Of a stretch of DNA of 64,000 bases, positions 33,995 through 37,225 are shown piece by piece. Numbering within the stretch: position 1 is the stretch's first letter; the number at the start of each line of letters is the position of its first letter. The DNA lies in contig CAVTZS010000010.1 of the NCBI GenBank assembly GCA_963739295.1, positions 42,931-106,930 on the forward strand, given 5' to 3'. The position numbers and the translations under genes are program-made. The stretch comes from an uncultured delta proteobacterium (GTDB taxonomy: Bacteria > Desulfobacterota > Desulfobaccia > Desulfobaccales > 0-14-0-80-60-11). The notes below the pieces were generated by a model. That model did not search any database and had not been told where the DNA came from. It worked only from the letters and a program-made list of their open reading frames with translations.

Positions 33995-34312
33995 AGGACG
34001 GTTTTCAAAGGACAGTTTTTTGTTTTCTGTTTTCGTGTAAAAAGACAGCAAAAATATAGAAATATTTGCCCTTGGGGCTATCTCTGTCCTTAATCTCATG
34101 AGTCAGTCCAGTAAAAGTGATAAGCCGGGGCCCGTAGCCCCGAGCTAAAGGAAGGTTTTCGGTTTTCGGTTTTCAGTTTTCGGTAAAAAAACCAGCAAGA
34201 ATATAGAGATATTTGCCCTTGGGGCTATCTCTGTCCTTAATCTCAGAGTCAGTCCATTAAAAGTGACCTAAGCCGGGGCCCAGCTAGCCGAGTAAAGGAC
34301 GGTTTTCGGTTT
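33985..34312. repeat. ~150-bp tandem direct repeat (2 units plus start of a third)
   Basis: AGCCGAGTAAAGGACGGTTTTC at 33985 and 34286 (variant ~34137); ATATTTGCCCTTGGGGCTATCTCTGTCCTTAATCTCA present twice. Confidence 0.85.
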
Positions 34313-34514
34313 GTCAGGTTTCGGTCTTCGGCCTAAACACCCAGCCCAAAAATCATTTTTGGCAATAATGTCAAGGCGGGCCACTCTAAATTAATAGTAA
34401 AGAAGCGGGGTTGTGCCGCAACTGTGCCGCTTCGGACCGCGGCTGATTTAGATTTAAGATGCTGTTTTTTCAGATTATTTCGCCAAAGGGCGGCGAAGTT
34501 GCGGAACATTGAGG

Positions 34515-34871
34515 TCAAGGCTTGTCGTTTAAGGAGAGGCGGAATCTCTCCTGGAGGGAGAGGAGGCGGATGGACTCGCGGAGGCAGCCGAGAGCGACGT
34601 GGAGGGAACGGGAATCGGCGGCGGTGTGGTAGAGACGGTCCAGGCGGACGGACAAGAGTTCCAGGTGGTCCAGGAGGGCTTGCTGTTGGGCCTGATGGGC
34701 ACGGTATTCCTGGATAGCCAACTCCTGCTTAAGGTGGCGGGTGTGGCGGCTGAGGGCCGAGGGGGAAAGGCCATATTGGGCGGCCAGGGGACGGTAAGAG
34801 AACCCGGCCAGGAGGGCGCGGTCGATCTCGGCGCGGGAGGGGTGGTTGCAGACGGAACAGCGTTGGTCCAT
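34515..34871 (-). CDS. Hypothetical CxxC-H / HTH protein (phage- or element-like)
   Basis: RCSVCNHPSRAEIDRAL..G.SYRPLAAQYGLSPSALSRH..H. Confidence 0.7.
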   Translation of the reverse strand: MDQRCSVCNHPSRAEIDRALLAGFSYRPLAAQYGLSPSALSRHTRHLKQELAIQEYRAHQAQQQALLDHLELLSVRLDRLYHTAADSRSLHVALGCLRESIRLLSLQERFRLSLNDKP

Positions 34872-35085
34872 TTAGAGGCGGTTTTCGGTTTTCAGTTTGC
34901 GGTTTTCGGTAAAAGAATAGGGTGAAAGGTTATCAGGAGAGGGGGCGGGGGGCCAGCACGGGTGGTATGGTTGGCAGTGAAAAAGGGGAAAAGGAAAAAG
35001 AGAAGTAATAATTGTAAATTTTTGACAATGGGTCGAATATTAAATAACATGGGGCTAATTTGAAGTTTTAGATGGGTGAAGAAGA

Positions 35086-35107
35086 CGGCGGGCAATGCCC
35101 GCCCTAC
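35086..35107. repeat. GTAG-type REP
   Basis: Reverse complement GTAGGGCGGGCATTGCCCGCCG. Confidence 0.65.
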
Positions 35108-35124
35108 GCTGGCTTGCTATCAAT

Positions 35125-35874
35125 TTATTCTCCTAATAATGCGAGGCCGATATGGATCAATCGGAAGGCAATAATGATAAGGCCAAAGCCACAAAGCAAG
35201 GAGATAATAATCCGCAACCACCCACCACTTGTAAAAAGAATAATAAAATAACCGATTGCAATGAAGACAAAAGCCATCAAAAACAAAAGATAGCCTGGCC
35301 ATCTCGGCTTCAAGCTTTCTGTACCCTGGCCATTGTTTTCATAACTGGCTTTTATACTTACTATGCACGAGAACAAGTTGGACAAATGAAAGAGGCGGTC
35401 AGGATAACAGGCGATCAATTTAGATTGGATCAACGGGCATGGATGGGGATCACTATCATGTCTGGACAATTCGAGGTTGGAAAACCAATGACTATCACTA
35501 TAAATTTTCAAAATACTGGCAAGACTCCAGCCAAAGAAATAACTAACGTTATGGTTGTTGAGCCATTGGAAGGAAATGCCGCTCCTGACTTTACTAGAGA
35601 ACAAATTGCATTTAAAGAAGGCAAGGGGCTTGCTACCCCCCAACAGAAAATTCATTCTTCTATGAAAGCCCCCGAGGAAAAACCTCTCACTGATGTTGGG
35701 TTTAAGAACGTCATTAATGGTAAAGTACGTATTTATATTCATGGTATTCTTGAGTATGACGACATATTTGGACATCATCATTGGATTACGTATTGTCATT
35801 ACCTCGCCACGGATGGAGAAAATTTTAATGCATACAAAGAACACAATGATACAGATAATAATTAGACGTCTCAT
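35125..35874 (-). CDS. Candidate antisense overlapping gene (249 aa)
   Basis: Stop-free across the whole sense gene; AAGGGGG-AAGAA-ATG; MRR plus hydrophobic N-terminus. Confidence 0.35.
   Translation of the reverse strand: MRRLIIICIIVFFVCIKIFSIRGEVMTIRNPMMMSKYVVILKNTMNINTYFTINDVLKPNISERFFLGGFHRRMNFLLGGSKPLAFFKCNLFSSKVRSGISFQWLNNHNVSYFFGWSLASILKIYSDSHWFSNLELSRHDSDPHPCPLIQSKLIACYPDRLFHLSNLFSCIVSIKASYENNGQGTESLKPRWPGYLLFLMAFVFIAIGYFIILFTSGGWLRIIISLLCGFGLIIIAFRLIHIGLALLGE
35152..35865 (+). CDS. Hypothetical membrane-anchored protein (AT-rich islet, paralog 1)
   Basis: One TM, then QRAWMGI, NTGKTPA, G.L.YDDIFG..H motifs shared with the neighbour; GAGG SD. Confidence 0.8.
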   Translation: MDQSEGNNDKAKATKQGDNNPQPPTTCKKNNKITDCNEDKSHQKQKIAWPSRLQAFCTLAIVFITGFYTYYAREQVGQMKEAVRITGDQFRLDQRAWMGITIMSGQFEVGKPMTITINFQNTGKTPAKEITNVMVVEPLEGNAAPDFTREQIAFKEGKGLATPQQKIHSSMKAPEEKPLTDVGFKNVINGKVRIYIHGILEYDDIFGHHHWITYCHYLATDGENFNAYKEHNDTDNN

Positions 35875-35903
35875 TTCTTCCCCCTTTTCGGGGGGATAGC
35901 ATC

Positions 35904-36752
35904 ATGCTGGAAAAAAGAACATTTTTCACTTTAATGGTCGTAGTCGCCGTAACGTTTTGCTATGTGCCACAATCAGAACCAAATGCCCAAGAGACCATGA
36001 CTTATGGTAAAAGCGAAGAGTTGCCCACAAATAATCGCACCCGCCAAGAAAATCCATCCGAGCAGGTTGGAACCATTCAACAGGTAGTTGATGCCGCTTC
36101 TCGCGCAAAGGAGGCAAGCACCGAGAAAACAAAGGCTAGCCAAAACTCTTCCCCACCAAATGATGCGCCGTGGTTGTTTCAGCTTCTTCTCACTATATTT
36201 ACTGGCGGCTTGGTGGTCGTTGGTGCGGTTCAATGCTATATTATTTTTAAAACCCTCAAGGAAACACAAAAGTCTGCTGATGCTGCTAAAGCAAGTGCTG
36301 ATGCCCTTCCAATTATGGAAAGGGCTTATATTTTCGTCGAAGTACGCCGCAAAGAAGAACTGAAAGAATTTGTTATTGGTCAAAACTTCTGTGAAATTGT
36401 GGTAATGAATGAAGGGAAAACTCCGGCCATTCGGAAATATATCAATAAATTTGCCAAGGTATTTGTATTGCCCTACACCATTCCGAAAATTCCATGCGTG
36501 CCTTATCCAAATATGCCGAGGATAGAAGAAATAATAGCTAGTAGAGACATAAGATTTATTGATGTCGAATTTACGCTCACTAAAGAAGAATTGGAGCATA
36601 TTAAATCCCGTAGAGCAACGCTGATTTGTATGGGGTGTATCCATTATGAGGATATTTTTGGAAAGCCCCATGAAACAGGTTTTTGTTGGTGGTATGAAGT
36701 TACCACTAATAATTTTTATTTCCTTGACGATCCCAATAATTACCGCACATAA
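35904..36752 (+). CDS. Hypothetical membrane-anchored protein (AT-rich islet, paralog 2)
   Basis: Signal-like N-terminus, TM, ERAYIFV, NEGKTPA, GCIHYEDIFGKPH. Confidence 0.8.
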   Translation: MLEKRTFFTLMVVVAVTFCYVPQSEPNAQETMTYGKSEELPTNNRTRQENPSEQVGTIQQVVDAASRAKEASTEKTKASQNSSPPNDAPWLFQLLLTIFTGGLVVVGAVQCYIIFKTLKETQKSADAAKASADALPIMERAYIFVEVRRKEELKEFVIGQNFCEIVVMNEGKTPAIRKYINKFAKVFVLPYTIPKIPCVPYPNMPRIEEIIASRDIRFIDVEFTLTKEELEHIKSRRATLICMGCIHYEDIFGKPHETGFCWWYEVTTNNFYFLDDPNNYRT

Positions 36753-36782
36753 AAGTATTATGAAAATAAATTGCCGCTTCAT
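35973..36782 (-). CDS. Candidate antisense overlapping gene (269 aa)
   Basis: Stop-free over ~260 codons of the sense gene; AAGGGGG-CAAAA-ATG; MKR plus hydrophobic N-terminus. Confidence 0.35.
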   Translation of the reverse strand: MKRQFIFIILLCAVIIGIVKEIKIISGNFIPPTKTCFMGLSKNILIMDTPHTNQRCSTGFNMLQFFFSERKFDINKSYVSTSYYFFYPRHIWIRHAWNFRNGVGQYKYLGKFIDIFPNGRSFPFIHYHNFTEVLTNNKFFQFFFAAYFDENISPFHNWKGISTCFSSISRLLCFLEGFKNNIALNRTNDHQAASKYSEKKLKQPRRIIWWGRVLASLCFLGACLLCARSGINYLLNGSNLLGWIFLAGAIICGQLFAFTISHGLLGIWF

Positions 36783-36837
36783 TTTTGCCCCCTTTTCGGA
36801 GGCGATTTCCCAAAAACCTTTATGTCAAGTTCTGGAT

Positions 36838-37225
36838 AATCCCTTTAGAAAAGGGGGGGATAAGAGGATGGCGGGCACTGAGGCCCGCCCCACCTGCACT
36901 AAGGCCTGCCCCACCCATGGTCTTAGCCCCACCATAGTCATGCCTTTGGCAGTCGTTCATGAGTCCTGCGGCTCTCCCGAACCTATGAAAAGTTCTCCCC
37001 CTCACCCCAGGCCTCTCCCCCGCGGGGAGAGGGGGCTAGGAACAAGGATTAAGATTCTTCGCTGCGCTCAGAATGACAAGAAAGACGGGGGAAGTCGGGG
37101 CTGAAGGCCCCGCCTTCCCCGGAAGCTTATGCGGGTTGGGAGGGGGGCTTGGGGGGAGGGCAGGGACCTCAGGTCCCTGGCCCTCCCCCCACACAATTAT
37201 CTAACTCTCCTGGCCCTCCCCCAAA
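36838..37225. repeat. Cluster of several palindromic repeat types
   Basis: GGCGGGCACTGAGGCCCGCCCCAC, CCCTCACCCCAGGCCTCTCCC..GGGGAGAGGG, GATTCTTCGCTGCGCTCAGAATGAC and GGGGGAGGGCAGGGACCTCAGGTCCC modules. Confidence 0.75.

Follow-up and report, generated by a model that had tools for sequence, protein, structure and literature searches.

A cross-phylum bacterial protein family with a codon-aligned antisense reading frame that may encode a second membrane protein

Introduction

It is disputed whether bacteria possess long antisense genes that are functional. Candidates known so far are, to our knowledge, young and restricted to certain lineages, and they are located mainly in DNA with a high GC content, in which the signal is mimicked by codon bias. 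Here, a locus is described in which two tandem plus-strand genes, designated g1 and g2, are each opposed by a long, codon-aligned open reading frame (ORF) on the minus strand. It lies in a 64,000-nucleotide stretch of contig CAVTZS010000010.1 of an uncultured delta proteobacterium; this whole stretch is referred to as the window, and coordinates are positions in it. From the comparison of homologs, it is probable that the sense genes of this family are fully overlapped by a conserved antisense gene that encodes a membrane protein.

The best-attested antisense overlapping genes are genus-restricted. Two of them, olg1 and olg2 of Pseudomonas aeruginosa, are described as taxonomically restricted genes of within-genus origin that are located inside larger genes and have support from RNA-seq, Ribo-seq and mass spectrometry (Kreitmeier et al. 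2022, PMC8850804). The frames reported here resemble them as long antisense ORFs embedded in annotated genes and argued from stop-codon depletion and codon-position-specific constraint. They differ in the complete mutual cover of the ORFs and in an open frame that is predicted from sequence and common to a family across several phyla, and the genes are AT-rich, so that codon bias cannot explain the pattern.

For the antisense ORFs opposite dnaK (Pfam PF10712, 'NAD-GH'), the authors describe stop avoidance without negative selection, suggest translation with a role other than that of an essential protein, and offer codon optimisation as a cause (Moshensky and Alexeevski 2019, 10.1101/724807); the avoidance of rare leucine and serine codons in a highly expressed gene is a live alternative there. 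Both cases share a codon-aligned frame, widespread stop avoidance, the lack of a homolog away from the parent gene and little antisense amino acid constraint. In contrast to dnaK, matched controls exclude codon bias here, a region-specific synonymous bias for antisense hydrophobicity is added, and the overlap is completely reciprocal and common to a cross-phylum family. 'Membrane-sticky' antisense ORFs were proposed for moonlighting genes from single-genome codon metrics (Thomas et al. 2023, PMC10400600). The present ORFs likewise contain many non-polar residues and are interpreted as possible membrane proteins; unlike in that proposal, the evidence here is comparative, with shuffles that remove the mirror effect of the sense codons.

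Type I toxin-antitoxin systems such as hok/sok combine a small (less than about 60 amino acids) hydrophobic membrane toxin with a non-coding antisense RNA. A hydrophobic membrane product on DNA that is transcribed from the other strand too is also predicted here, whereas ORFs of about 250 to 280 codons are found on both strands. Such a system was rejected as an explanation, since the antisense ORFs have 249 and 269 amino acids and the opposite strand codes for a folded protein.

A published description of such a dual-coding family was not found in a literature search. The case is cleaner than earlier ones in that the genes are AT-rich, only the three codons that would place stops in the antisense frame are depleted, the antisense boundaries are conserved, the hydrophobicity signal goes beyond synonymous shuffles, and the pattern is replicated independently across phyla. 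Being AT-rich, codon-specific and replicated, it makes the question of antisense genes directly testable, with thousands of natural replicates. Annotation pipelines, which disallow overlaps of this kind, would overlook one product in every case.

Results and Discussion

Open reading frames on both strands of the locus

The sense genes g1 (35152..35865, plus strand, 237 amino acids) and g2 (35904..36752, plus strand, 282 amino acids) are paralogs with 18% sequence identity, both matched by one profile. An earlier reading made from the letters of the window (the sequence-only reading) had claimed that each is covered by a codon-aligned antisense ORF, and all these ORFs were recovered. The one opposite g1 (35125..35874, minus strand, 249 amino acids) encloses the whole gene, while the one opposite g2 (35973..36782, minus strand, 269 amino acids) ends at the TCA of sense codon 24. 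The sense codons TTA, CTA and TCA, which are read as stops in the codon-aligned antisense frame, are termed anti-stop codons in the following. Their avoidance, also claimed before, was borne out: g1 contains none in 238 codons, while in g2 a single TTA and a single TCA are present at codon indices 9 and 23, both within the first 24 codons, with none in the other 258 codons. The remaining two antisense frames over g1 and g2 contain 13–22 stops each.

When the codon usage of 191 AT-rich genes from this genome was taken as the basis, the probability of an open antisense frame by chance was P = 6e-3 for g1 and 1.3e-4 for codons 25–282 of g2. Three antisense-open runs of at least 150 codons were found in the 191-gene set, with 152 codons in an ordinary gene, 169 in a poly-T artefact and 241 in a sequence that proved to be the antisense ORF of g1. 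Leaving this ORF aside, an open run of at least 200 codons does not occur in any genuine control among the genome's AT-rich genes. The antisense g1 ORF was thus part of this set, as it was of the source-genome controls for the codon ratios given below, which makes both comparisons conservative. The evidence within the window that the open antisense frame exceeds chance is moderate. A stretch of several hundred consecutive T at G000:C3:26689-27675 (G000 being the source genome), which yields a poly-phenylalanine ORF, is probably an assembly artefact or a masked stretch.

The antisense protein of g1 starts with M-R-R followed by a hydrophobic run and has two hydrophobic segments at its C-terminus, encoded opposite the sense N-tail. 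Both antisense ORFs had been stated to begin just past the sense stop; this was corrected for g2, where the start is located 28 nucleotides beyond the stop and not directly at it, with the first 10 codons (MKRQFIFIIL) outside g2. The motif CCGAAAAGGGGG-N5-ATG, which the sequence-only reading had reported ahead of both antisense ORFs, is present at both, with an SD-like (Shine-Dalgarno-like) GGGGG at N5 before the ATG. It is part of a 41-nucleotide direct repeat (35854-35894 and 36762..36802, 78% identical) that covers antisense start, SD and hairpin, and the g2 copy of which lies wholly outside the sense ORF. In hairpin 1 (CCCCC-TTTTC-GGGGG, 35879..35896, both strands), the G-rich 3' arm precedes a start codon by 5–7 nucleotides on each strand, namely that of g2 on the plus strand and that of antisense g1 on the minus strand. 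Hairpin 2 (GCCCCC-TTTTC-GGAGGC, 36785..36805), which is not followed by a plus-strand gene, includes on the minus strand the SD-like GGGGG for antisense g2. The motif had been described as a small hairpin, and both copies do fold on either strand; only hairpin 1 is better than shuffled sequences, and modestly so (z −2.4 and −2.2 for the two strands), while hairpin 2 is not (z −0.1 and −0.9).

Anti-stop codon depletion across the family

The family sample comprised 49 distinct genes with DNA, obtained from Desulfobacterota-like, Acidobacteriota, Verrucomicrobiota and Alphaproteobacteria records and from metagenomes, i.e. from at least four phyla. An ORF was counted as a family gene if it had at least 120 amino acids, lay off the ends of its locus, contained no N and matched the hidden Markov model at E<=1e-5; identical ones were counted once. 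A weak member with 13 antisense stops (L014, E 2e-6; L-numbers denote family loci) was kept among the 49. The expected number of anti-stop codons was conditioned on the leucine and serine boxes and the third-base usage of each gene. With 104 anti-stop codons observed and 432 expected, the ratio for the family was 0.24. The same ratio was 0.93–0.98 in 70 flanking, non-overlapping ORFs of the family loci with a third-position GC content (GC3) <0.5, and in genes of the source genome it was 0.85–0.96 at GC3 <0.5 and 0.75 at GC3 0.5–0.6. No depletion like that of the family was seen among the 2343 genes of the source genome. At a GC3 of 0.3–0.5, anti-stop codons are completely lacking in 10 of 26 family genes versus 0 of 160 controls.

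The depletion is seen in the codon usage of nine AT-rich family genes compared to 128 AT-rich control ORFs of the source genome, from which the antisense ORFs of g1 and g2 were excluded. TTA accounts for 3% versus 29% and CTA for 2% versus 11% of the leucine codons, and TCA for 2% versus 22% of the serine codons, while most other codon fractions are alike in family and controls (ATA.32/.33, ACA.27/.26, GGA.31/.32, AGA.36/.32); smaller shifts were found in the proline, alanine, threonine and glutamine boxes. A host codon bias was ruled out, as the AT-rich genes of the same genome use TTA, CTA and TCA freely.

These data bear on the possibility that the antisense frame has no function and stays open because the sense gene is constrained or because a donor lineage had particular codon habits. 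This explanation is already disfavoured and is considered improbable. It is in line with the described excess of long ORFs in the codon-aligned antisense frame over the number modelled, for which codon optimisation has been put forward as a cause, with the low number of leucine codons in the family (127 in nine genes), and with the hydrophobic antisense translations that hydrophilic sense tails yield automatically. However, the expectation used here already accounts for the gene's own leucine and serine counts and its third-base usage, the strong deviation is limited to the three anti-stop codons with the rare A-ending codons ATA, AGA, GGA and ACA at normal levels, and AT-rich genes that share an island or a genome with the family genes lack the depletion. 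Moreover, 1031 of 1035 gene pairs are less than 45% identical, so that synonymous sites are not shared by descent and common ancestry of these sites cannot carry the pattern.

Boundaries and start sites of the antisense frame in homologs

Anti-stop codons are unevenly distributed along the 49 genes, with a ratio of 0.66 in the first 30 sense codons versus 0.13 beyond. This sparing of the first 30 codons also speaks against a mere by-product of sense-gene constraints. No anti-stop codon was found after codon 30 in 32 of the 49 genes. In g2-type genes, which have a signal-like N-terminus, the antisense frame ends around sense codon 20–30, while in g1-type genes it ends a few codons upstream of the sense start, with a distance of nine codons recurring in five genes.

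At the opposite end, 29 of the 32 open genes contain a start codon in the antisense frame (ATG, GTG or TTG; 19 of them ATG) past the sense stop, and an SD-like 4-mer precedes 15 of these 29 starts compared to a background of 0.13. The frame thus stays open in homologs and has a start beyond the sense stop, unlike in controls, when checked as the sequence-only reading had suggested; the open frame in homologs lends support to its proposal of tandem, fully overlapping sense/antisense coding units with SD-bearing hairpins that would serve both strands. The antisense N-termini follow the pattern M-[KR]-[KR] plus a hydrophobic run, for example MKRQFIFIIL in g2, MKKIIFVIIF in L026 and MKNKWLFGIIIL in L010. 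Since the N-termini of these three are outside the sense ORF, they cannot mirror sense codons.

Tandem family genes in the same frame are found at L015 (G373:C22), L036 and L040, where the antisense frame is open through both genes and the spacer, resulting in ORFs of 556–610 amino acids. A motif, (T)TGCC-GTG-ACA-GGN-CGG, is located just past the sense stop on the antisense strand at L030, L036, L040, L041 and L043 (also at L005, L012 and L018). Its GTG is in the antisense frame with no SD before it; the motif could be a conserved antisense N-terminus or a DNA or RNA element.

Selection on the antisense product

Antisense identity, codon shifts and hydropathy were analysed in 46 of the 49 genes (E<1e-10). 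For the hydropathy test, synonymous codons were shuffled within each gene, and 43 of the 46 genes were included (three with a region of fewer than 25 codons were left out). The antisense hydropathy opposite the sense N-tail was above that of the shuffles in 35 of 43 genes, with a mean z of 1.26 and a Stouffer Z of 8.2; the values for the antisense proteins of g1 and g2 were +1.56 and +2.89. Genes with negative z mostly have broken antisense frames (L025, L052, L053, L003, L039). In the same test, the mean z values of source-genome controls were 0.00 and −0.01 for two regions of AT-rich genes (n=113), −0.07 and +0.11 for GC-rich genes (n=150) and −0.38 for genes with hydrophilic N-termini (n=57). 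The sequence-only reading had cautioned that hydrophobicity in this frame partly mirrors hydrophilic sense codons; the shuffles show antisense hydrophobicity to be selected beyond this mirror effect, which a by-product of the sense tails would not survive.

The codon shifts, compared in 35 of the 46 genes (11 had no anchor motif), point in the same direction. CCA (antisense Trp) was found at.47 versus.31 in controls and CCT (Arg) at.11 versus.22, CGC (Ala) at.36 versus.13 and GTA (Tyr) at.35 versus.21. Overall, the antisense residues W, G, A and Y are favoured over R, P, N and S, and no shift was seen for AAT/AAC, where both antisense alternatives are hydrophobic. Judged from the codon statistics of the family, selection can be taken as demonstrated to keep the antisense frame open and its ends hydrophobic.

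As to whether selection acts on the antisense product itself, the evidence is mixed, with the hydropathy bias and the codon shifts speaking for it. In the N-tail, 25% of the differences between genes are sense-synonymous versus 34% antisense-synonymous, which favours the antisense frame, while in the beta-sandwich part of the same 14 gene pairs 46% are sense-synonymous versus 18% antisense-synonymous; 15 pairs passed the frame-neutral alignment score, the totals are without the near-identical L052/L053, and the pairs are few and non-independent. This last restriction and the following observations weigh against an antisense gene. An antisense stop after sense codon 30 is present in 17 of the 49 genes, including a third paralog of the source genome (L003, G000:C12:123288-123992(-), 39% GC), and judged by these stops the antisense frame is dispensable in some members. 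The SD-hairpin start of the CCGAAAAGGGGG type, for which the sequence-only reading had proposed a test of conservation in homologs, is confined to close relatives; a start in or adjoining a G-rich hairpin like that of the window was found in L023, L006, L015 and L003. Whole-gene antisense identity is 13.5% versus 13.0% in synonymous shuffles, a tiny effect (z 6.5) with relatedness uncontrolled. The AlphaFold prediction from 24 antisense sequences reached a predicted local distance difference test score (pLDDT) of 54.9 and a predicted template modelling score (pTM) of 0.26, with residues 50–162 below 50. Antisense g2 was not recognised by the ESM atlas/protein language model (no usable match; 1726, below 2300), and 10 antisense proteins had no match in Pfam. 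A search of 401 genomes for the antisense C-terminal module revealed no free-standing copy, as strong matches occurred only at family loci; eight weak matches (E 8e-4 to 9e-3), which were not inspected, were obtained additionally. Antisense g1 yielded 276 candidates and no match at E<=1e-3 in the protein collection, a null that carries no information, since gene callers do not report genes on both strands of the same DNA and few words are shared.

The third paralog L003 contains a single antisense stop (CTA, codon 141) and has no hydrophobicity signal (z −1.23); it looks like a copy that has lost the antisense frame. The reverse case, an antisense ORF as the only real gene, was rejected, since the sense protein folds with a pLDDT of 87 and shows the sense codon-position pattern in its domain.

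Several of these observations would also be expected if the antisense frame were translated while its product is not the point. In this scenario, ribosomes would shield the minus-strand RNA from Rho-dependent termination or decay; the shielded RNA would either regulate the sense genes as an antisense transcript of full length or extend into the helix-turn-helix (HTH) gene on the minus strand (34871-34515), and selection would act only on the absence of stops and on a harmless, membrane-tolerated product. Such an explanation is unlikely, although it deserves more credit than a frame without any function. It fits the near lack of antisense amino acid conservation beyond what the sense frame imposes, the unfoldable middle of the antisense protein, the lack of free-standing homologs in the searches, the loss of the frame in 17 of 49 members and the likeness to the dnaK antisense ORFs (10.1101/724807). 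It does not account for the synonymous bias, which at one end is directed towards hydrophobic antisense residues, or for the signal-like N-terminus outside the sense ORF, and a terminator-like hairpin is situated between the antisense ORF and the HTH gene.

A model of the dual-coding locus

Returning to an antisense gene for a membrane protein, dual coding of the locus is likely on the comparative evidence. The plus strand would encode a single-pass membrane protein with an immunoglobulin-like (Ig-like) beta-sandwich. A second membrane protein would be encoded on the minus strand by the codon-aligned frame, which starts shortly after the sense stop codon and terminates close to the sense start or past it. 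This protein would consist of a signal-anchor helix at the N-terminus, a long middle part with little structure and two hydrophobic helices at the C-terminus. The antisense model contains an N-terminal helix (residues 2–25) and two C-terminal helices (206–226 and 231–268) with moderate pLDDT (~60–84). The hydrophobic antisense modules would lie opposite the disordered, hydrophilic sense N-tail and the sense C-tail, and the folded sense domain opposite the unstructured antisense middle, so that the constrained part of each strand would be placed where the other strand is tolerant.

A candidate sigma-70-like promoter (35022..35050, plus strand; TTGACA-17-TAACAT, 10 of 12 consensus positions matched) is located upstream of g1 and probably drives a sense operon of g1 and g2, in which the hairpin would couple g1 to g2. 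Five promoter-consensus matches of this kind were found versus 4.1 expected in shuffles, the one at 35022-35050 being assigned by consensus only. The minus strand is presumably transcribed and the antisense frame translated, with convergent reading that would end at a hairpin at 35103-35087. This candidate terminator of the minus-strand transcript (35087..35103, minus strand) consists of a 7-bp all-GC hairpin and a T-rich tail, 22 nucleotides past the antisense g1 stop; its folding energy of −16.2 kcal/mol (z −1.2 versus shuffles) is not significant alone. A convincing minus-strand promoter was not found downstream of g2 in the locus sequence. Among the sequencing runs listed, no RNA run contained the locus, and the only two DNA runs contained 5% of the words. 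Since the same DNA would be transcribed convergently, sense and antisense products would be alternatives; that they are expressed alternatively is speculation drawn from this arrangement. The full picture, an old cross-phylum 'two-in-one' family in which two membrane proteins would be encoded codon for codon on opposite strands of 0.7–0.9 kb, with convergent expression and alternative products, is put forward with even confidence for and against. If true, this would be the first bacterial antisense gene pair conserved across a whole protein family rather than a genus.

A different use of the two strands, an invertible or rearranging segment in which the strands would take turns as sense strand downstream of a fixed external promoter and phase variation would yield two proteins, is very improbable. 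An 18-nucleotide inverted repeat (16 of 18 matches, 35121-35138 and 36756-36773) flanks the two-gene unit, and palindromic hairpins bound g2. However, by a rough estimate about 0.5 AT-rich repeats of such length would arise in this stretch by chance, no recombinase gene is located nearby, and each strand has its own starts.

Sense proteins and distribution of the family

The sense proteins belong to one family by homology and by the conserved motifs NxGKTPA and YxDIFG behind a transmembrane helix. In g1, a disordered, hydrophilic N-tail (residues 1–49) is followed by the transmembrane helix (50–93) and an Ig-like beta-sandwich (98–227), whereas g2 has a signal-like N-terminus, a hydrophilic linker, a transmembrane helix and a beta-sandwich with the NxGKTPA and YxDIFG motifs. 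The AlphaFold model of the g1 sense protein, based on 102 sequences, had a pLDDT of 87.3 (about 55 for the tail, >95 for the beta-sandwich, with the region 50–93 as one long helix). No Pfam family was found for the sense proteins, Ig-like matches being sub-threshold only, and Foldseek returned no match for the sense model at E<=1e-3. With VIA-align, generic Ig-like sandwiches were obtained (transglutaminase C-terminal domains, ApaG, HAP2 domain 3) at Z <=8.4, the usual level for unmatched models, as well as archaellin-like helix-plus-sandwich matches at Z 7.4. A function was not assigned from the fold, given these generic sandwich and archaellin-like matches.

Homology searches resulted in 57 homologs of g2 at E<=1e-3 and in 3748 cluster representatives related to g1 at the same threshold, 811 of them at E<=1e-10. 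The family is patchily distributed: it was found in 12 of 401 genomes of the phylum sample (source genome included) with up to six matches per genome, sometimes in tandem, and in records labelled Smithellaceae, Acidobacteriota, Verrucomicrobiota and Alphaproteobacteria. Relatives in viral contigs were rare (0 and 2 in two scans), which disfavours a phage origin. The neighbours at the family loci are heterogeneous and include IS1595 and IS1 transposases, a HEPN protein, a proteasome-like protein and PAS, and for this reason no function was derived from the neighbourhood; a toxin/immunity, defence or receptor pair, as suggested by the sequence-only reading, is a conjecture. At L045:516-1691(-), a HEPN-domain ORF overlaps the first ~200 nucleotides of the family gene in a frame different from that of the antisense ORF; the true start of this HEPN-domain ORF may be internal.

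Genomic setting

The genes g1 and g2 are located in an AT-rich island (35000-36800) with about 40% GC, compared to 60–66% in the flanks and 56.6% in the whole genome. On one side, it is bordered by what we take, from the translations, to be a dnaJ-like gene and a small HTH gene, and on the other side by a presumably uvrB-like gene. The small HTH gene (34515-34871, minus strand) had a sub-threshold Pfam match only. Integron cassettes carry an attC site, an imperfect palindrome of about 57–141 nucleotides, after each cassette; integron gene cassettes were rejected here, as the spacer between g1 and g2 is too short (38 nucleotides with an 18-nucleotide hairpin).

The 18-nucleotide inverted repeat that brackets the two-gene unit is possible by chance in AT-rich DNA. 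GC-rich elements (GGCGGGCA.TG..CCCGCC) are present at both edges of the island (35074-35110 and 36857-36915) as a 24-nucleotide direct repeat with 79% identity; judged from their position, they may be the island boundaries. The second edge element is followed by a 20-nucleotide tandem pair (36875-36915). Just upstream of the island, the HTH gene is flanked by an 84-nucleotide direct repeat (34015-34098 and 34162-34245, 88% identical) and by arrays of the heptamer GGTTTTC/GGTTTTCA (34007-34339 and 34880-34917, four copies of a 38-nucleotide block). By their arrangement around this gene, the arrays and repeats could be iterons or binding sites.

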